DNA from: an uncultured cyanobacterium
GTDB taxonomy: Bacteria > Cyanobacteriota > Cyanobacteriia > Cyanobacteriales > Cyanobacteriaceae
Length of the DNA stretch: 64,000 nucleotides
Assembly (NCBI GenBank): GCA_963710605.1
Contig: CAVQBA010000004.1
Location: forward strand, 96,001-160,000
Direction: 5' to 3'
Of this stretch, positions 1 to 10,809 are shown piece after piece. The notes below the pieces were generated by a model. It saw only the letters and a list, made by a program, of their open reading frames with translations, had not been told where the DNA came from and searched no databases. Position 1 is the first letter of the stretch. Every line of letters starts with the position of its first letter. A program made the translations under genes and the position numbers.

Positions 1-511
1 TTTCCTCTTGATTATTATTCATCGCTTCGGTGAAGTCGTTTTCTAAATCAGATTGTGATTCACTAATCGTTTCAGCTAAATCCGATTGTACTTCTTCGAC
101 TTTCGTTTGCAGACTTTCGACGGTTTCACGTACAGTATTAAATACCTCTTGTAATTCTGATGATTTACTGTCGCTATCTTCACCTAAGGCGGTTAATTCA
201 CCAACGGTTTCTTCTACTGTTTGACTGGTTTGCGATTGTATTGATTGAGTATTTGATTGTAAGTTATCTAAACCTTGACGTAAATTTTCACTTTCGCTAT
301 CTAACTCATCTCTAGCACCAGAAATACGTTCTAATAAACCATCTGCCCTAGTTGATAACTCATCCCAGTTGTTGTCGAATTGCTCACTAACGGCCGCTAA
401 TTCTTCTCTTGCTTGATTAAGATTTTCTTCAGCTTCATCAGCACGATTAAGCAATTCTTGAAGTTGGGTTACTGTTTCGGCAATACTTTGTTCTAAATCT
501 ACACTAGCCAT
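1..511 (-). CDS. Acidic coiled-coil protein, paralog 4 of the operon (partial, runs off the window start)
   Basis: Manual translation from ATG at 511 gives MASVDLEQSIAETVTQLQELLNRADEAEENLNQAREEL..., open to position 1. GAGG RBS upstream. N-terminus resembles that of 1639..2631. Absent from the ORF track because it lacks a stop. Confidence 0.9.
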   Translation of the reverse strand, partial: MASVDLEQSIAETVTQLQELLNRADEAEENLNQAREELAAVSEQFDNNWDELSTRADGLLERISGARDELDSESENLRQGLDNLQSNTQSIQSQTSQTVEETVGELTALGEDSDSKSSELQEVFNTVRETVESLQTKVEEVQSDLAETISESQSDLENDFTEAMNNNQEE

Positions 512-650
512 GATTTTTTCCTCTTAAATAATAAATAATTGTCTTGAAAAATTGAATGTTACGTTTTAGCTTTTAGTTGTGGGGTGTTAGGTTTTAGTTG
601 TTAATAAATTTAATTCTTAACTTTTAACTCTTAACTCTTAACTGTTAAGG

Positions 651-1583
651 CTATCCGAAATCAACACCAAACTTATCGGCGGCACTTCTAACTGAATCAA
701 CACCGTTTTCGATCGGCTCTTTAAAACCATCTAATTGATCAATCAAATCACCAATTACTTCTCTGACACCTGCTGATTCTTCCTCCGCATCGGTTACTTT
801 TTCCACCATGTCATCGATCGATGATGTTACTTGCCCAATAGCGGAGGCGATTAATTCTTGTAACTCAGTTTCGATTTCGGTTTGAGCTTTATCCATCAAA
901 CCATCAACACCTCCTGATAATGCTTCAGAAGTTGACCCTAAAACATTACTAAAGCTTTCACCAACAGAGGCAAATTCTTCTGCCATGGTTTGAATATTGG
1001 TGGTGACAGTTTCTTGATTTTGTTCTACTTGCTCAGTAAAACTTTGGGCTTCTTCTTCCATTCTGCTACTGACATCTTCTAATTTGTCTCGCATTGTCTC
1101 CATCACTGCTAAAGCACTTTCCATGGCTGAAGCTAATTCATCTTGATTACCTTGAATTGCTTCTTGAGCGGTATTCAATATTGCCATCGCTTCTTCTTCC
1201 GCCATTTTGGTTGTGGAATTATCTTCCTCGATTTGAGTTTGATATTGACTAATTTTTTCGCTAGTAGCCGCTACTTGCTCCATTATTTGCTCTTTAGATT
1301 CATTTAAGAAACTTTCTAATTCATTAGCTGTTTCTTCAAAGCTAGTCACGTTTTCTTGGGTTTGAGTTTGGTTTTCGGCTATTTCTTCTTGCATTTCGCC
1401 TAATGCACCTTGAACTTCTCCTAGGGTTTCGGTTACTTGTGCTTGTTTTTCTTGAACATTACTAACTAATTCATCTGCTTCTGCTTGTACTTCTTCGGCT
1501 AATGTCATTAGGTTTTCTAAACGTTCGGGAAATTCGATGATTAGTTGAGATAATAGATTGAGGCTATCGCTTAATTCACTCAT
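651..1583 (-). CDS. Acidic all-helical coiled-coil protein (apolipoprotein-like), function unknown
   Basis: 310 aa ORF, E/Q/S/T/A-rich with very few basic residues and amphipathic periodicity. Confidence 0.85.
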   Translation of the reverse strand: MSELSDSLNLLSQLIIEFPERLENLMTLAEEVQAEADELVSNVQEKQAQVTETLGEVQGALGEMQEEIAENQTQTQENVTSFEETANELESFLNESKEQIMEQVAATSEKISQYQTQIEEDNSTTKMAEEEAMAILNTAQEAIQGNQDELASAMESALAVMETMRDKLEDVSSRMEEEAQSFTEQVEQNQETVTTNIQTMAEEFASVGESFSNVLGSTSEALSGGVDGLMDKAQTEIETELQELIASAIGQVTSSIDDMVEKVTDAEEESAGVREVIGDLIDQLDGFKEPIENGVDSVRSAADKFGVDFG

Positions 1584-1638
1584 GATTATTAATTGGGTTA
1601 AAGATTGTGGTTATTGAATTGAGATTATGTAAATTAAT

Positions 1639-2631
1639 TTAGAAATCAAAGGCATCAAGTACAGCATTGATTGCACCAATTGCGACTTTAGCGGCGGCGA
1701 TGTAAGGTAGGATAGGACTAATACCACCTGTAACTGATGTACCTACACTTGTCATGGTGATTTGTTCGACCATTTCGCTGGCTAAGGATGCTACAGTGTT
1801 TTCGATCGCATCTTCAAAGGTTTCTTTTAATTCCTCTTTGGTAGTTTCTCCAGCGTATTCAGCGGTGTTGGTTAGTATTTCAGTAAATCTTTCTTTCAAT
1901 TCGTCGGCTAAATCTAAGTTTTCGTCGTTGAATGAAGTTAAAAATTCATCAAAATTACCAGTTAATTCTTCTAACTGCCCTGTAATTTCGGTAAGTTGCT
2001 CTCCTATTAGGTTGCCGCTAAAATCACTGAGTAATGTATCAAGGCTATCTTTGACTGTTTCACCAACATTGGTGGCGGTTTGTTCAAATAATTCTTCGGT
2101 TTCTTCTTGGGCAGAAGTTAAGTTGTCTTCCAAACCAGAGGTGTTTTCAGTGAAGGTGTTGAAAAATTCTTCGGCAGTATCACCATTTTGACTTAAGGAA
2201 TCTTCTAAGGAGGTTATTGTTTCCATCAATTCGCCAAAAGTTTGAGCTAATGCTTCGACGACACCATCTAATTCACTTTGCTGATTATCAACTTCGGTTT
2301 CGACTTCACCTTTAGTTTGCTCTACTGATTGATTTATCTCTTGTAATCTTTCTTGTAAATCATTAAGTGCTTCTTGAAAAGCTGTCATTTCACTAATCAT
2401 TGCTTCAGAATCTTGAGCAAATTCTTCTTGAGAACTTTCAAATTCTGTACTAGCATTGTCTAAAGTGTTGTTGACTTCTTCTTGACAGTTATCTAAAGAT
2501 TCGTTGGTTTCTCCTAACTGTTGAGTGAAATCTTCCATTTGATTATTGGCGATATCTAAGGCTTTGAGTAACTCTTCTAGTTTCTCTACCGACTCGTCAA
2601 TATTTTGCTCCATTGCTTGGGCTTCAGCCAT
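1639..2631 (-). CDS. Acidic coiled-coil protein with hydrophobic C-terminal segment
   Basis: 330 aa ORF with AGGAG RBS. C-terminus TSVGTSVTGGISPILPYIAAAKVAIGAINAVLDAFDF is hydrophobic. Confidence 0.85.
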   Translation of the reverse strand: MAEAQAMEQNIDESVEKLEELLKALDIANNQMEDFTQQLGETNESLDNCQEEVNNTLDNASTEFESSQEEFAQDSEAMISEMTAFQEALNDLQERLQEINQSVEQTKGEVETEVDNQQSELDGVVEALAQTFGELMETITSLEDSLSQNGDTAEEFFNTFTENTSGLEDNLTSAQEETEELFEQTATNVGETVKDSLDTLLSDFSGNLIGEQLTEITGQLEELTGNFDEFLTSFNDENLDLADELKERFTEILTNTAEYAGETTKEELKETFEDAIENTVASLASEMVEQITMTSVGTSVTGGISPILPYIAAAKVAIGAINAVLDAFDF

Positions 2632-2672
2632 GATTTTTGCTCCTTAAATAAATAAAATTACTAATTAATTTG

Positions 2673-3569
2673 TTATCCTAAGACTGTTTCGATCGCATCT
2701 AAGACAGGTTTAATTTGTTCAATCAAATCAGTCACTTCATCAACTTGATCGACAATGTCACCGATACTACCGTCTAATAAGTCTCCTACTTCTTCTCCTG
2801 CATCTTTCAAAAAGCCCATGCCATCGCTTAAAGCACCTGAAGATTCACTTAATTCACCTGTCAATTCCTCGATGAATTTAGCTGTTAAAGCACTCATTAC
2901 ATCACCTGCTTGAGACTCTAGATTACTGACTAAATTTTCTGCCCCTTCTTGACTAGCTGATGCAACGTCTTCAAATTCTGTTTGTAAGGTTTCTAATTTG
3001 TCATTTAACTCTTGAGCTAAAGTGCTAAACTGTTCCATCATGTTTTCAGTTTGGCTTTGGAAACTTTCGGTTGTACTACCAACTTGTTCTTTTAACTGCT
3101 CGATATTACTGTTAGCAGTTTCTTGATATGTTGCCATTTGCTCTTGCATCTGGTCGATATTTTGCCCATAATCATCAAAAGCTGATTGACTATCTTCTGT
3201 TTGGGTTTCAATTTCTTCGACAATTGCTTCTTTGCGTTCAATAAATTCTTGTAAACGTCCTTGAAAATCTTCCATCGATTGGTTTAGTTGTTCGCCTACT
3301 TCACTAATCTGTGATTCAAATTCACCCATCACCCCACGAGTATTTTCTAACTCTGTTTCGAGGTTACTTTCTGCTTCTTCTAACTCGGTTAGCATTGCTT
3401 CCCATTTAGCTTGAGATTCTTCTCCTGCTGTTTTGAGGTTTTCGGCAATTTCGGTTGCTTTCTCGACGATTTGCTCTACTTGCTCGAAGGCTTTTTCTCC
3501 TTCTAATATTAAACTTTGAGCCCTTTCGTCTGCTTGTTCAATCAAGGCATTAATTTCATTGGTAGCCAT
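2673..3569 (-). CDS. Acidic coiled-coil protein, first gene of the operon
   Basis: 298 aa ORF with AAGGA RBS and the same composition as its neighbours. Its IGDIVDQVDE matches IGDLIDQLDG in 651..1583. Confidence 0.85.
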   Translation of the reverse strand: MATNEINALIEQADERAQSLILEGEKAFEQVEQIVEKATEIAENLKTAGEESQAKWEAMLTELEEAESNLETELENTRGVMGEFESQISEVGEQLNQSMEDFQGRLQEFIERKEAIVEEIETQTEDSQSAFDDYGQNIDQMQEQMATYQETANSNIEQLKEQVGSTTESFQSQTENMMEQFSTLAQELNDKLETLQTEFEDVASASQEGAENLVSNLESQAGDVMSALTAKFIEELTGELSESSGALSDGMGFLKDAGEEVGDLLDGSIGDIVDQVDEVTDLIEQIKPVLDAIETVLG

Positions 3570-4154: not shown

Positions 4155-5615
4155 ATGGATATGGTAATACAAAATATCATTGACAAATTTTCAACTTATA
4201 TTCAAGTTAAACAACAAGGTAACAACTATTTTGTTCCTATTTATTTAACTGATGTTAAGTTAAAAAAAACTATATCTTCTCACTTACAATCATTTACTAA
4301 TGATAAAGAAGAAGACTGTATTCGTCATTTTTTACGATCGTTAAAAAAATCTAACTATCAAGATGTAACTACTAAACAATTGATTGTTTGTTATTTACAA
4401 AAAGCTTGTTGGTATGCCTCGCAAAAAGTAAGCCGAGAGTTGAGTCAGACTAGTAATCTAAATTTGCATTATTCTCATGAAGATTGTTTTATGATTGCTT
4501 GTGAGTTGGCATTACAACCGAGAAAATTACTTGATAATTTTAATTTTGAGACTAAAGTATCGGTACAAACTTATGTACAAACTGTATTAAGCAGAATGAT
4601 TAAAAATCAAATTGTGACACAGTTAAAAGCTAAATCTTTAAAATTTTCTGATCAAGGTTTACTAAAAAATACTAGTAAAAGTCAATTAGATGAATCACTT
4701 TCTACTTATGGTATAAATCAAACTAAAATGACTGAGTATGGTATATTTTTTCAGTCTTTTAAAGACTTATATTATACTTTATTAGATTTGAGTTTAGACT
4801 CAAGTAATAATAGTGATAAAAATTTAATTAGTACTTTAAATCAAGCACAAACTAAAGCTCTTAACGATCGTATTCAACAACAATTTAAACGTTTAGGTTT
4901 ACCTCAAAAAAATCTATCAACTGAGGAAATTCAACAAAATCTTAGTTTTTGTGTACAAGTAATTCGTAACTATCAAAATCGTACCTTTGTGGATTTAGAT
5001 AATGTTCATCAAGATTTAACTACAACTGCTAATTCTCTTGATTTATTATCCCAAAGTGAAGAATATAAACAGTTTGAACAATTACGTAATATAGTAGTCA
5101 AAGAATTTGAACCTTTAGATTTAGCTCATAAAGTTATTTTACTTTGGTTAGGATTAGAGATAAATCAAGCTGATTTTAGAGAACTTTTGCAATGTGAACA
5201 ACAATTTCAAGTTTCTCGTCAATTAACGAAATATCTTAAAAATATTCTCAAAGCAATCGTTCAAAAAGTCTTAACAAATTCTAGTCAATTAACTAACAAA
5301 GAGTTAAATAAACTTTGTCAAGAAAATACTAAAGTTATTAAAGATTATTTACAATTATATAGTCAAGATTATTTTATTAATTTGTTGATGAATATTGTTA
5401 ATAGTAATGATGATTTAATCAAAAAATTAATCTTAGAAATTAGTAATAATTATTTTATTATCATAGTTGATTTACTAAAAAATAAAATTGATGAAAAACT
5501 AGAAATAAAAATACAACAATTTGCTTGTGCTACACAAAGACTTAACTATTTTGTATTTCAAACTCTAAGTAACAACAAAGCATTATTGATTAGCCAACAA
5601 AAAATAGAGGAGTAA
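4155..5615 (+). CDS. Sigma-70-like / HTH protein of the cyanobacterial DUF1822-associated type
   Basis: 486 aa. YLQKACW...LLDNFN...QTY segment resembles sigma region 2, and the LEINQADF...QFQVSRQL segment resembles an HTH. It sits 4 bp before a DUF1822 gene, the usual arrangement. Confidence 0.65.
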   Translation: MDMVIQNIIDKFSTYIQVKQQGNNYFVPIYLTDVKLKKTISSHLQSFTNDKEEDCIRHFLRSLKKSNYQDVTTKQLIVCYLQKACWYASQKVSRELSQTSNLNLHYSHEDCFMIACELALQPRKLLDNFNFETKVSVQTYVQTVLSRMIKNQIVTQLKAKSLKFSDQGLLKNTSKSQLDESLSTYGINQTKMTEYGIFFQSFKDLYYTLLDLSLDSSNNSDKNLISTLNQAQTKALNDRIQQQFKRLGLPQKNLSTEEIQQNLSFCVQVIRNYQNRTFVDLDNVHQDLTTTANSLDLLSQSEEYKQFEQLRNIVVKEFEPLDLAHKVILLWLGLEINQADFRELLQCEQQFQVSRQLTKYLKNILKAIVQKVLTNSSQLTNKELNKLCQENTKVIKDYLQLYSQDYFINLLMNIVNSNDDLIKKLILEISNNYFIIIVDLLKNKIDEKLEIKIQQFACATQRLNYFVFQTLSNNKALLISQQKIEE

Positions 5616-5619
5616 AAAA

Positions 5620-6870
5620 ATGAGTATTACGAGCAAAGATTTAGCTATTATATATCCAGAGCAACTATTAATCCCCTTTAGCCAAGACGATAAACAACAG
5701 GCATGGCAAAAGGCAACACAAAATAATCAAGACAACAAAGCAGTTATCTGGAATAGTTTTCTTAATCATCTTTGTTTGCAATATATACCTTATTTAAAAT
5801 CCGATATTACTGATAATGTAACGATACAAACTTGGCAATCAGAAGCAAAATTAAACCAAATTTGGCAATTAGTAAATGGTAATGCGATCGATATTGTATC
5901 AGAAAACTCAACCACAACTAGATTAGTTTTAATCCCCACTAATGAAGAGACAGACGAATTAAGAGTGCCTAGAGAATGGTTAGATTTACCAAATTGGGTT
6001 GGTAATTATTATATAGCGGTGCAAATCAACGAACAAGAAAATTACCTGACAATTCAAGGATATACCACCTACGAAGAGTTAACTGAATATGGAAATTACG
6101 ATGCGATTGATGAAACTTATAGTCTTCCTCTCACTAATTTAACTGAAGATTTGACATCAATGTATATCAGTTTAGAATTATACCCTTATCATCGCCCTCA
6201 ACTAAAAAACGAATATATTCTAGATAGTGATAAGCTACCAGAAATTGTTAGCCAATTGAAATCAACCACAATGACATTACCTCGTTTAGAAATTCCTTTT
6301 ACTGATTGGGGGGCAATCATTGACAATCCAGAAACTAGATATTTTTTCAGTGAAGATAAATATAACCAAAATAATAAAGAAGAGTCAATCGTTAATAATG
6401 ATAAAGTAATTAAAGACAATCAAGGTGTAAAATTATTACAATGGCTAGAAGACGCAGTAACATCAGGTTGGCAAACTTTAGATAGTTTAATTAATCAAGA
6501 GCAACTAAACTTAGCCTATAACTATCGTCGTAGTAATAGTGATAATAGCGTTGAAGCAGTAAAACTAGTTGAGATACCAACAAATACAGGTATGCAAACT
6601 CTAGCTTTAGTTATTCATTTAGAAAAAACTCCAGAAGGCAAATTTACCCTCAAAATACAACTCAATTCTACTGCCGAAAAATCGACTCTTCCCAGTCAAC
6701 TCAAACTACAAATGGTATCTTATTCACAAAAAATTATTCAAGAAGTAGAAGCTAGAGATAATGATAATTCAATTCAATTAAAACAATTTACCACCCGTAG
6801 CGGTCAAAAATTTTTGATTAACATTGTTCAAGAAAAATTTACTTGGGTAGAACAATTTTCTGTAAGTTAA
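5620..6870 (+). CDS. DUF1822 family protein
   Basis: Motifs WQLVNG, RLVLIP, ELRVPREWLDLPNWVGNYYIAVQI, WL...GWQTL and the C-terminal EARDNDNSIQL beta domain. Confidence 0.85.
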   Translation: MSITSKDLAIIYPEQLLIPFSQDDKQQAWQKATQNNQDNKAVIWNSFLNHLCLQYIPYLKSDITDNVTIQTWQSEAKLNQIWQLVNGNAIDIVSENSTTTRLVLIPTNEETDELRVPREWLDLPNWVGNYYIAVQINEQENYLTIQGYTTYEELTEYGNYDAIDETYSLPLTNLTEDLTSMYISLELYPYHRPQLKNEYILDSDKLPEIVSQLKSTTMTLPRLEIPFTDWGAIIDNPETRYFFSEDKYNQNNKEESIVNNDKVIKDNQGVKLLQWLEDAVTSGWQTLDSLINQEQLNLAYNYRRSNSDNSVEAVKLVEIPTNTGMQTLALVIHLEKTPEGKFTLKIQLNSTAEKSTLPSQLKLQMVSYSQKIIQEVEARDNDNSIQLKQFTTRSGQKFLINIVQEKFTWVEQFSVS

Positions 6871-7268
6871 AATTCAATTTTTATTAGTACCAAAAACGGT
6901 ATTAATAACTAGTTTTGTTATGTATTTATCAAATTCTAAAATACAATATTTAGCGATAACTATAGTTATTTCGATTAAGATTTAGACAGTATTAATAACA
7001 CTTAAAATTATAAGCCCTCACCCCGCTTTGAAATAAATTACAAGGCTAACAGCAAGACGTTTAATAAATCAAACTCAAATTCAATATAAAAAATATCTCT
7101 CAAGTTATTTCAAGTAACTATAAATACTCTAAATATTACTATATTAACTACTAAATTAATTAATATGATTTAATATTATCAAGTAAATTTGCCACTGTAG
7201 TTATCAAGAAATCAAATAACAACTACTTAATTATCAATTGTCAATTATCAATTATCAATTACAAAACT

Positions 7269-9098
7269 ATGTCTGGCTTAGTTGAAATTAATTTAGGAAA
7301 AGGTAATTTAGAAGAAGGCTTTGATTTAGTCACGGTAAAAATAGATAAAAAGACTCAATGTACAAGTAGTCTTCCTCCTTCACCAGAGTTACAACAAATA
7401 TATTATCGTTGGTTATCCTTTTACCAATCACTATATCAGTCTCGTCGTTTTGCTATCAGACAAAGACAACCAGTAGCGGTAGTAAATAATTTTGAGGATG
7501 ATGATGATGATGACTTTGAAATTGATGAAGATGATATTACTCATGTTTGTGAAGAAGATTTTACTGACATCTGTCTTCAATTAGAAAATAGCCTTAATCA
7601 ATGGTTAGGAAATAACAGTTTTGTCAATACTGAAAATAAACTTAGACAACAATTACCACCAGAAAAAGAACTTATTTTTGTTTTAGAATCAGAAGATTAT
7701 TTAATCAAAAAAATACCTTGGCATTTGTGGCAATTTTTCGATGATTATCCCTTAACAGAAATTAGTTTAAGTAATCTTTATTTTAAGCCTAGGGCGACTA
7801 TTTTTAATAAAAGTAAGAAAGTTAGAGTTTTAGCTATTTTAGGTGATTCTACAGGAATTGATGTCCAAAGCGATCGTCAAATTTTAACTAATTTAGAAAA
7901 TACAGAAACGTTATTTTTAGTAGAACCAACTATTGATGAATTATACACTCATTTGTTAGCTGAAAACGGTTGGGATATTTTGTTTTTTTCTGGGCATAGT
8001 GAAACTAATATAGCTGAAAACTATACAGGTTATATGTATTTAAATCAACAAGAAAAACTAACTATGGAGGAGTTAAAAAATGGTATCAAAAAAGCAACTG
8101 ACAATGGTTTACAATTAGCTATTTTGAATTCTTGTGATGGTTTGGGTTTGGGTAAACAATTAGCTGATTTATCTATTCCTCAAACTATTTTAATGCGAGA
8201 ATCGATCGCTGATCAAGTAGCACAACAATTTTTACAATCTTTTTTGGACATTTTTTCCCATGGACAAAGTTTATATTTATCAGTTAAAGAAGCTAGAGAA
8301 AAACTAAAAACGATCGAAAATCAATTCCCAGCGGCGAGTTGGCTTCCTGTTATTTGGCAAAATCCTGCTGTTATACCCCCTGTGTGGCAAGATTTATGTT
8401 TTACCCCAACAACTCTCAAACGTAAAATAAATCAAATTTTATCTGCTAGTGTCGCAGTCTTTAGTTTAATCATCGGTGTCTTTAGCTTAACTAATCAAGC
8501 TGAAGCCAGAGAATTTGAGCAAAATAATTCTTTAATCGATTTAGGTAATTATTTACAACAACAAACTTTAAATTTACAGCAGTTTAATAATTATTTAAAA
8601 GCAGATTTTAACGAGGAATATCTGGATAATCAATTAATTGAATCAATTGATAGTATTAGCAGTCAATTACAAGATAATAGTTTACCTTCAATATCAGATT
8701 TGAATTTTTTAAATGATAGTTTTAATCAACAACTACAAGTAGATAATACTCTTAGTTTGACTGAAAATGTCAACGATGGGCAAGTTAATAATAAGGTAAC
8801 TAATCCGCAATCAACTCAGAATTTAGAAAACCTTAATCAGATTAATTCATCATCAGAAACTCAGCAATTGTTAAATTCAGTTGAGCAGATAAGTGATAGT
8901 TTAGAAGAATTTTCGGCGGATATAGATAACTTAAATATAACGATCGAGCAAATCAATGAGAATAACAATCTCTGGTTAGAAGATATTAACAAAATCGATC
9001 GAGATTTACAAGCATATAAAGAAGATTTGGCAGTTAAAATGAATGATAACGAAAAAATGCTCACTGAATATTCTGAGCTATTAAAAAGAATACTATAA
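7269..9098 (+). CDS. CHAT (caspase/HetF-like) protease with TM helix and N/Q/D-rich coiled-coil tail
   Basis: Catalytic dyad motifs LFFSGHS and AILNSCDGLGL, plus IPWHLW, MRESIAD and WLPVIWQNP. Hydrophobic stretch ILSASVAVFSLIIGVFSL follows. Confidence 0.85.
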   Translation: MSGLVEINLGKGNLEEGFDLVTVKIDKKTQCTSSLPPSPELQQIYYRWLSFYQSLYQSRRFAIRQRQPVAVVNNFEDDDDDDFEIDEDDITHVCEEDFTDICLQLENSLNQWLGNNSFVNTENKLRQQLPPEKELIFVLESEDYLIKKIPWHLWQFFDDYPLTEISLSNLYFKPRATIFNKSKKVRVLAILGDSTGIDVQSDRQILTNLENTETLFLVEPTIDELYTHLLAENGWDILFFSGHSETNIAENYTGYMYLNQQEKLTMEELKNGIKKATDNGLQLAILNSCDGLGLGKQLADLSIPQTILMRESIADQVAQQFLQSFLDIFSHGQSLYLSVKEAREKLKTIENQFPAASWLPVIWQNPAVIPPVWQDLCFTPTTLKRKINQILSASVAVFSLIIGVFSLTNQAEAREFEQNNSLIDLGNYLQQQTLNLQQFNNYLKADFNEEYLDNQLIESIDSISSQLQDNSLPSISDLNFLNDSFNQQLQVDNTLSLTENVNDGQVNNKVTNPQSTQNLENLNQINSSSETQQLLNSVEQISDSLEEFSADIDNLNITIEQINENNNLWLEDINKIDRDLQAYKEDLAVKMNDNEKMLTEYSELLKRIL

Positions 9099-9478: not shown

Positions 9479-10429
9479 TCAATTATCAACTGTCAATTTA
9501 TCCTCTTCTTCTTTTTCCCAATCAATTGCCCCATTTTCATTGCTAAATTCAATCGATGAAACATTTTCATCTTCATCACTTAACCATTCACTCCAATCAT
9601 CACCTATTTCTTCATCATCAGTAACTTCTTCAACCACAATCTCTTCGCTAACTGCCTCTTCTTCTGCGGATAAATCTCCCATAAATTCATCCCAGCTTTC
9701 TTCTGTTTGTTGTTGTTGCTCATCAGAAATAACTACACTTTCTTCATCAATCGTATCTAAAATTATTTCATTCTCATTTTCATCAATCGTATCCAATATT
9801 ATTTCATTCTCATCTTCATCATTAATAGTATCTAATATTATCATCTCATTCTCATCTTCATCAAGAGCATCCAAGATTATTTCGTTTTCTTCTTCTACTA
9901 TTATCTCATCTAATAACATTTCGTTATCACTATCAATTGGCGAATTTATTTGCTCTTTATTTTCATCTAACCAATTTTCATCATCATTATCTTCTGCTAA
10001 ATCAAAATCGATAATCTCACTGTCTTGAGTTTCACTTTTTTCTATTAGATTAGACTTATTAAATTCAAAAGAAACAGATTTAGTTAAAGGAATATCTTTT
10101 AAATTATTTCCGGCTAATATTTCTAAAATTTTGACTAAAACTTCTCTATTTTTCTGCCATACTTGATAAACATTTCCTAATTGTTGAGTATGAAATTTAG
10201 TTAAATCATTTTTGCTACTAAGAATTTCTGAGTTACTAGCAGTGGTGGTTAATCCTTTTAATAAGTTTATTTGTGTTTCAATAAATTCAACCGATTCTTG
10301 TGTATCTTTATCTGTATCTGTTTTGATACTAGTTAATTTAAACTTTAAACTATTACTAAATGCCACTAAAAGAGCCGCTGAAAAATCTTTTTTAGCTAAT
10401 AATTGTTTAATTTCTTCTTGACTATTCAT
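9479..10429 (-). CDS. Hypothetical protein with long acidic repeat tail
   Basis: 316 aa. Tandem (D/E)ENEIILD(T/A)(I/L) repeats. N-terminal domain similar to 10495..10809. Confidence 0.75.
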   Translation of the reverse strand: MNSQEEIKQLLAKKDFSAALLVAFSNSLKFKLTSIKTDTDKDTQESVEFIETQINLLKGLTTTASNSEILSSKNDLTKFHTQQLGNVYQVWQKNREVLVKILEILAGNNLKDIPLTKSVSFEFNKSNLIEKSETQDSEIIDFDLAEDNDDENWLDENKEQINSPIDSDNEMLLDEIIVEEENEIILDALDEDENEMIILDTINDEDENEIILDTIDENENEIILDTIDEESVVISDEQQQQTEESWDEFMGDLSAEEEAVSEEIVVEEVTDDEEIGDDWSEWLSDEDENVSSIEFSNENGAIDWEKEEEDKLTVDN

Positions 10430-10494
10430 TAGTATATTTACCTGTCTATTTTAGCTTTACTTTTTAGTTAAAAAATTAATTTAATCACAATTTT

Positions 10495-10809
10495 TTATTT
10501 TTGAGATAACTGATCTAAATTGTCTTGTAAAATAGCAAACATTTTTTGTAAGCTTTGAACATTTTGTAAAATTTTGTTATGAGCATTTTCTACCTCAGAA
10601 AAATGGAAATTTTCTAAAGTGCTATCTCCTAATTCATGCTCAATTTCATTTTCTAACAAATCAATAGAAGTACGACAAGAGGAAGAATTATTAACTGAGT
10701 TTGTAGCGGTAATGATTTCTAATTTCATTGCTTCTACCATCGCCATCGCCATCGCTTCGTCTAATTTTCCTTCTTTGATTTTAACTTTGACTTGTTCTAT
10801 ATTACTCAT
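10495..10809 (-). CDS. Hypothetical protein (short paralog of the 9479..10429 N-terminal domain)
   Basis: 104 aa helical ORF. TSIDLL...FH aligns with TQINLL...FH in the neighbour. Confidence 0.75.
   Translation of the reverse strand: MSNIEQVKVKIKEGKLDEAMAMAMVEAMKLEIITATNSVNNSSSCRTSIDLLENEIEHELGDSTLENFHFSEVENAHNKILQNVQSLQKMFAILQDNLDQLSQK

Follow-up and report, generated by a model that had tools for sequence, protein, structure and literature searches.

In the polymorphic toxin systems described by Zhang et al. 2012 (PMC3482391, in its available text), a constant N-terminal trafficking element is joined to variable C-terminal toxin domains such as Ntox28, Ntox44 and HINT, and the toxin genes occur in tandem cassettes with downstream immunity genes (SUKH). 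We report here on a set of four genes, A–D, whose relatives in other genomes have a comparable organisation. It lies at the left end of a 64,000-nucleotide stretch of DNA from an uncultured cyanobacterium (assembly GCA_963710605.1, contig CAVQBA010000004.1, positions 96,001 to 160,000), the whole of which is called the window below. Unlike the polymorphic toxin systems, the trafficking element associated with this module is a helix of ~30 residues tied to four paralogous proteins of 300 aa, and none of the routes given in the available text of PMC3482391 (type II, V, VI and VII secretion, i.e. T2SS, T5SS, T6SS and T7SS; PVC, PrsW, MuF, TcdB/TcaC) corresponds to it. We consider it somewhat better than an even bet that A–D build up a helical carrier of four subunits for proteins of inter-cell conflict, a carrier that is distinct from type VII secretion and is released with the help of a dynamin devoid of a P-loop.

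Elements of such an arrangement are known from other systems. In type VIIb secretion, separately encoded helical partners, the Lap proteins, complete the N-terminal helices of LXG toxins into an elongated bundle (10.1101/2023.07.21.550046, as far as the accessible part of that paper goes), and by analogy the module may form a comparable bundle of toxin and partners. It differs from LXG-Lap in having four conserved partners of 300 aa in place of two small cognate ones, Gram-negative hosts, and cargo of only 136–343 aa; moreover, no WXG100 protein was found in any of five genomes, nor an FtsK-type ATPase beside any module. Among bacterial dynamins, the available sections of the respective papers tie LeoA to toxin release, possibly via vesicles (PMC4159319), and IniA/C to the release of vesicles that carry IniB (PMC10240201). 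The gene linked to our module is predicted from its model to share the fold of BDLP, LeoA and IniA/IniC, and is unlike them in the missing P-loop (14 of 14 sequences), in the FHA insert within the G-domain of most copies, in its neighbouring Ser/Thr kinases and in its linkage to ABCD. The ClyA-family toxins (Nhe, HBL, YaxAB) consist of several paralogous helical subunits of ~300 aa, only some of which are hydrophobic. A–D are unlike these as well, since they score below the family cut-offs, their hydrophobic segment is terminal rather than central, and four fixed subunits are combined with toxin cassettes inside the operon.

A literature search that covered few subscription papers and no supplements returned nothing on the four-gene module, and the supplementary neighbourhood tables of PMC3482391 and PMC7159879 could contain such loci. 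In its available text PMC7159879, which there makes no mention of dynamin, does not describe the module, and neither does that of 10.64898/2026.10.19.760177. Within this scope, the four-gene set belongs to no named family tested and is undescribed.

Four paralogous families in a fixed order

The genes of the module, with the tail segment of B that is discussed below, are:

2673..3569, minus strand: gene A, which opens the module, 298 aa, an acidic amphipathic helix
1639..2631, minus strand: gene B, 330 aa, with two long helices predicted (2-207, 213-328)
1654..1770, minus strand: hydrophobic tail of B (residues 288-326), kinked by Gly and Pro, a candidate membrane-inserting hairpin
651..1583, minus strand: gene C, a 310 aa acidic amphipathic helix
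1..511, minus strand: gene D, cut by the window edge, the first 170 of 301 aa (whole gene G000:C4:95606-96511)

The initial annotation of the window had described four co-oriented genes for proteins rich in E and D and nearly free of Cys, Trp and basic residues, and four minus-strand open reading frames (ORFs) of this kind are indeed present, with D+E at 0.23–0.24, K+R at 0.03–0.05, and 0–1 Cys and 0–1 Trp per protein. Acidity as high as this is reached by just 13 of the 1951 frames of at least 200 aa in the window's own genome (G000; 3.93 Mb, 33% GC, 85% complete). The annotated operon of at least four genes was extended by following the contig leftward, which adds four more genes, E–H, so that eight co-oriented genes form two tandem four-gene modules, A-B-C-D and then E-F-G-H. 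The cluster A–H, with intergenic gaps of 21–159 bases throughout, supplies 8 of the 13 most acidic frames. As had been anticipated, no named family could be assigned: none of A–H matches a Pfam or NCBIfam family above cut-off, neither GvpC nor MCPsignal is among the best 25 Pfam rows per protein (GvpQ scores 24 bits vs 100), searches with PADLOC and PHROGs gave weak coiled-coil matches alone (ZorA tails, JetC, LmuB, tape measures), and matches in the ESM Atlas were all <0.8 by features.

The paralogy of the four proteins had been proposed from their termini, and the quoted motifs (IGDLIDQLD, IGDIVDQVD) are there; profile comparison puts the proposal on a broader footing. Local profile-profile scores of the six real A–D pairs are 123–147, compared with 75–88 for a reversed template and 78–107 for self-reversed controls, the alignments of the real pairs being in register from the N-terminus onward. 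By this measure the paralogy exceeds what composition alone would produce. Lengths are nearly constant (interquartile ranges: A 295–298, B 327–331, C 306–310, D 296–301) despite identities of about 20–25%. All four share a gradient of hydrophobic periodicity, from about 3.5–3.58 in the N-terminal half to 3.6–3.75 in the C-terminal half, the dominant period being 3.55–3.59. These comparisons mark A–D as four paralogous families that are ancient and fixed in length.

A profile of B finds 230 representatives at E<=1e-10. With it the module was detected in 21 of 401 genomes of the same class as G000 and in 2 of 301 genomes of a second sample, drawn from the phylum of genome G401 and labelled Acidobacteriota. 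The distribution is patchy, the module being present in some and missing from other near-complete genomes of one family. Of the 40 loci compared, 33 retain the order ABCD, 4 break off at a contig end and 3 are rearranged; some of them are near-copies, so that they do not amount to 40 independent cases. A conserved cluster thus exists elsewhere, its order kept from cyanobacteria to Acidobacteriota, and its members do not fall into one characterised family.

Variants of the module were seen as well. In L058 (4871-10834, Acidobacteriota), about 1690 residues of Decapeptide-family repeats precede A within one fused protein. G683 has three modules (L113, L114, L115), one with a hydrophobic-tail B and two with an acidic-tail B, one of the latter in the order A-D-B-C; leader cargo (next section) was not detected in the modules of this genome. 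In one clade (L026/L057, L055, L061, L103-L105, L107, L108) the genes downstream of D are one for polysaccharide export and a Wzc-like one (Pfam-checked in L026), and the kinase and the dynamin-like gene come after them.

Cargo genes with a common leader helix

The modules of 14 out of 41 loci contain extra genes, 22 in all and mostly located between B and C, which begin with a common helix of ~30 residues and then diverge, with total lengths of 136–343 aa. A profile of this leader picks out 22 of the 1670 ORFs in the 41 loci at >=39 bits (16 of them seeds), the next best scoring 15, and all 22 lie inside modules. In five of five whole cargo genomes, too, all 8 strong leader matches are inside the module; as these are rows of the query alignment or close kin, the informative part is that no strong match occurs elsewhere in those genomes.

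Behind the leader, 7 of the 22 proteins pass a Pfam cut-off: Ntox44 (twice), Ntox28, PT-HINT, Peptidase_C39, Amidase_6 and DUF6973. Some of the remaining ones have glycine zippers, below cut-off. Seven cargo proteins have a hydrophobic hairpin that we take to be pre-toxin-TG-like, a call that Pfam did not make. In some, a motif pattern (Y, FDG, EAK, Y, Q, W) resembles the Tox-REase entry in the available text of PMC3482391. One cargo gene, at one locus, is followed by an SMI1/KNR4 immunity gene (over cut-off), and in L046, L055, L061, L103, L107, L108 and L112 the genes behind the cargo are small unnamed ORFs, possibly for immunity-like partners. In L107 there are three cassettes and, stranded between them, an 81-aa duplicate of the start of C (L107:4456-4701), as would be expected from cassette recombination. 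L106 and L048 show a mirror arrangement, in which variable genes beside A and B end in a helix. The combination of a common trafficking element at the N-terminus and varying toxin domains at the C-terminus can accordingly be recognised, from the proteins' sequences, in relatives and not in the window's genome. The strongest clues, the leader cargo and the partner with a dynamin fold, are located in other genomes and were beyond the reach of a first reading confined to the window's letters.

As a separate observation, the cargo leader scores weakly (10–15 bits) on the N-termini of C.

The C-terminal tail of gene B

Among A–D a hydrophobic tail occurs in B only, as originally noted for the gene at 1639..2631: the best 19-residue Kyte-Doolittle window is 1.79 in B (residue 307) vs 0.78 in A, 0.60 in C and 0.87 in D. 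The tail is the most conserved part of the B family (G297 0.93, P306 0.82, P309 0.80). Across 121 homologues it is hydrophobic in 81, acidic in 22 and intermediate in 18, and the state of the tail goes along with that of the cargo. In 12 of the 14 loci with leader cargo B has an acidic tail, and the other two (L046, L056) combine a hydrophobic B with extra copies of A and D beside the cargo. In a tree of B built without the tail, the cyanobacterial rows with an acidic tail, 12 in number, make up one clade (98/99); leader cargo is present in 10 of them and mirror cargo in 2. The B of the window belongs to the hydrophobic-tail, cargo-less group.

An AlphaFold2 monomer model of B (mean predicted local distance difference test, pLDDT, 82; predicted template-modelling score, pTM, 0.38) is confident in local structure with an undefined global fold, the pTM being too low to settle between a compact bundle and an extended fold. 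With this model Foldseek gave no match, and a wide structural search returned generic long coiled coils only (Z<=10.2, mostly with a very large root mean square deviation). A complex prediction for A, C, D and B, each trimmed to its last 250 residues, scored 0.03 (mark 0.32) and counts neither way. The initial annotation had envisaged a hetero-oligomer with one membrane-engaging subunit, and this part of it fits the invariant gene set, the fixed lengths, the shared register and the conserved tail of B; none of the four identities that it offered could be upheld as a family, the profiles for HBL and apolipoproteins in particular scoring far below cut-off.

A linked protein with a predicted dynamin fold

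In 16 of 40 loci a gene for a protein of 580–770 aa lies no more than 3.8 kb from the module. Its profile matches 23 of the 401 class genomes, namely 19 of the 21 that have the module and 4 of the 380 that do not; the four latter genomes have no match for D either, and the two module genomes without a match have a completeness of 85% and 61%. Where module and gene occur together, they share a contig and lie within about 8 kb of each other in 18 of the 19 genomes. All four same-family genomes with a module have the gene, and a search of G077, which is of the same family and has no module, did not find it.

Foldseek with a model of the protein gives BDLP, LeoA and IniA as top matches (E 2e-7 to 3e-6), and the model is consistent with a dynamin fold, with a G-domain, a helical neck/trunk and a membrane paddle. 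The P-loop motif GxxxxGK[ST] is found in 0 of 14 sequences, and most copies have an FHA insert within the G-domain. Ser/Thr kinases are often adjacent; a kinase motif was detected in 16 of 40 loci, an undercount, as Pfam detected kinases in loci that the motif missed.

Four genomes have the dynamin-like gene and no module. In 3 of them, where the dynamin-like gene is FHA-bearing, it has beside it a cargo-like ORF rich in glycine (glycine zippers) or in beta structure, at L120:7015-8223, L121:8139-9575 and L122:953-2407, and the L122 protein begins much like F, the B-like protein of the second module, with its hydrophobic start. Such pairs may be a simpler version of the release system.

A proposed carrier and competing explanations

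We infer the assembly, the insertion of the B tip, the docking of cargo and the route of export as follows. One copy each of A–D would coil in parallel and in register to form a rod. The rise of an alpha-helix is 0.15 nm per residue, and applying this value to A–D gives a rod length of about 45–50 nm. A hydrophobic B tail would serve as the membrane-engaging tip. In modules with an acidic tail, a separate cargo protein would dock by its leader helix and bring its own hydrophobic hairpin or glycine zipper together with a toxin domain, and the N-terminal end may carry other payloads, by fusion or by docking (F, the giant A of L058, the C-terminal-helix cargo of L106 and L048). Release of the rods, for example in vesicles, would come about through membrane remodelling by the dynamin-like protein, with kinase and FHA signalling, and not GTP, as its switch. 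The A–D of the window would represent the cargo-less, hydrophobic-tipped form, acting on membranes directly, and E–H would make up a second rod, one that diversifies fast and has the F domain on display.

Several points weigh against this proposal. As the acidic-tail rows fall in one clade, the correlation between tail and cargo reflects a single event, not a repeated one, and with a single-clade origin of acidic tail and cargo the toxin role could be a local co-option. Of the 22 cargo proteins, 15 have no Pfam family over cut-off. Leader-bearing genes were found neither in G000 (0 of 8552 frames at >=12 bits, in an assembly that is 85% complete) nor in any of five other hydrophobic-B genomes, and the role of the window's cargo-less copy is extrapolated from relatives. 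The periodicity shared by A–D also follows from common ancestry alone. The dynamin-like profile was built from genes beside modules, so that 9 of the 19 module genomes, which gave rows, match by construction, and the linkage count includes kin genomes that are not independent. The linkage is not universal, as the gene was not found in G000 (85% complete), even by unfiltered search, nor in G401 or G683, the two Acidobacteriota genomes with modules. Finally, the template-modelling scores (TM-scores) of the model to dynamins are low (about 0.2).

A competing explanation is an internal scaffold for membrane remodelling or of a cytoskeletal kind, working with the dynamin-like protein and the kinases in vesicle budding or in thylakoid/envelope repair, with toxins as a later addition in a single lineage. 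The module is accompanied by the dynamin-like gene over a wider range than by cargo, A–D are without signal peptides and well conserved (51–72% identity within family), and coiled-coil proteins that form heteropolymers are known in cyanobacteria (10.1101/553073, available text). We nevertheless regard this as unlikely: occurrence in 21 of 401 class genomes is too patchy for a housekeeping role, the dedicated leader is found inside modules only, modules have been multiplied and carry fused variable domains, and G000 and two Acidobacteriota genomes have the module with no dynamin-like gene found. A multi-component alpha pore-former like Nhe/HBL/YaxAB, whose soluble subunits would assemble on the target membrane, where B inserts and cargo, if present, uses the pore, overlaps with the proposed carrier and differs in having a ring-shaped pore, not a rod, as its working form. 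Several paralogous helical subunits of 300 aa with one hydrophobic member, the need of cargo for passage across a target membrane, and weak Bacillus_HBL scores of 16.6 and 18.2 bits are in keeping with it; yet these scores are far under the 29.1-bit cut-off and rank among generic coiled-coil matches, no pore-forming toxin is among the best 60 of 687 solved sequences for B or among 39 for C, and the hydrophobic segment lies right at the C-terminal end and has been lost from 22 of 121 B homologues. We rate a pore as improbable.

That A–D are chaperones or adaptors which pass cargo to a known machine, be it type VII secretion or a contractile injection system, is a long shot in our estimate. Helical partners that bundle with the N-terminal helices of toxins are the LXG-Lap principle (10.1101/2023.07.21.550046, accessible part), and phage-type sheath genes are present in 6 of 8 cargo genomes. 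However, none of five genomes searched for WXG100, four of which bear cargo, gave a match, with WXG100 controls positive in 3 of 14; FtsK/SpoIIIE was not found in G000, is under cut-off in the cargo genomes G294 and G787, and is present in G198 and G913 away from the module. No sheath was found in G733 and G750, which are 99%-complete cargo genomes, or in 4 of 7 hydrophobic-B genomes, and in the 9 of 15 module genomes that have a sheath it is never beside the module. Very unlikely indeed is a role as apolipoprotein- or phasin-like coats of lipid bodies, or as acidic cation-binding storage proteins, to which the amphipathic helices, the extreme acidity, weak matches to apolipoprotein profiles (27–41 bits) and the appearance of ApoA-IV/A-I as top sequence matches might point. 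The apolipoprotein scores are far under the 90-bit cut-off (ApoLp-III reaches up to 34.1 vs 36.3), the dominant period is 3.55–3.59 and not the 3.67 of 11-mer repeats, and four fixed, non-interchangeable families with toxin cassettes would be left unexplained.

If A–D are indeed subunits of a carrier, the system may constitute a new delivery route, in which interchangeable toxins are loaded at either end of a ~45-nm four-subunit rod via a 30-residue leader, a hairpin tip inserts into membranes, and release depends on a phosphorylation-controlled, GTP-independent dynamin and on no known secretion machine; we offer this fuller picture tentatively. Known polymorphic toxins use few named machines, and a dedicated leader with a fixed set of four proteins would suggest a further one, in a group, the cyanobacteria, whose ways of fighting neighbours are poorly known. 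As a P-loop-less, FHA-bearing protein of predicted dynamin fold is tied to a defined gene set, the question of what bacterial dynamins release can be put to a direct test. If real, a rod able to take on short, swappable cargo would be of interest as a protein carrier.

Homologue searches

The B family was recovered by a profile search without a word index, among 1.84 billion sequences, and 117 of 150 listed representatives were kept in the alignment, 33 fragments or long repeat proteins being left out. A word-index search with B alone as query gave 0 matches among 6601 candidates, and one with the A alignment gave 2 matches. With B alone, pattern scans confirmed 0 of 124 stretches in genome contigs and 0 of 93 in viral contigs, with no match in plasmids. 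Of the weak genome matches, G055, G098, G234 and G260 proved on inspection to be unrelated coiled coils. Source names for 20 B homologues were generic or absent.

The second module and neighbouring genes

The genes of the second module are:

C4:94646-95521, left of the window, minus strand: gene E (A-like), best-scoring family profile A
C4:92771-94486, left of the window, minus strand: gene F (B-like), 571 aa, best-scoring family profile B
C4:91817-92749, left of the window, minus strand: gene G (C-like), best-scoring family profile C
C4:90769-91695, left of the window, minus strand: gene H (D-like), best-scoring family profile D

These assignments are consistent between genomes (E on A, F on B and G on C in 6 of 6 each, H on D in 5 of 5), and E–H, together with the three modules of G683, indicate that duplication copied the entire four-gene set. 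Identity to orthologues in five other genomes is 46–72% for A–D and 21–40% for E–H; by this comparison of sequences, E–H is the faster-evolving copy of the module. F consists of a B-like rod preceded by a conserved head of ~105 residues and a disordered linker. The head, which is extra relative to B, comprises a hydrophobic glycine-rich N-terminal segment and a small helical domain, and a word-index search with the N-terminal 115 aa of F found nothing but F itself.

Promoter and terminator scans gave chance-level results (32 vs 36.3 and 6 vs 4.5, respectively). The neighbours of the cluster in G000 include PsbP and DUF1822 genes, which mark the genome as cyanobacterial. On the plus strand of the window, at 4155-9098, three genes diverge from the cluster, encoding a 486-aa sigma-70-like protein (below cut-off), a DUF1822 protein and a CHAT-domain protein. 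DUF1822 also flanks the module in L046 (by Pfam), with similar-looking genes in L056 and L101, and not in four same-family genomes. Two small unnamed genes follow at 9479-10809 (minus strand), with N-termini that are alike by eye; one has a very acidic low-complexity tail (D+E 0.29). Left of the window, the adenylyl-sulfate kinase gene after H looks shortened (129 aa), and in a polysaccharide-type cluster (G000:C4:70000-81200) many ORFs appear broken into short pieces, which suggests assembly frameshift errors or decay.

In L022-L025, from same-family genomes, a divergent gene resembling a ligand-gated channel (SBP_bac_3 and Ion_trans_2) and a Ser/Thr kinase gene lie upstream of A, the kinase being followed by an FHA-WD40 gene in 2 of the 4. 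Their counterparts in G000 are located elsewhere in the genome, at C6:225665 and C4:487441-491095.

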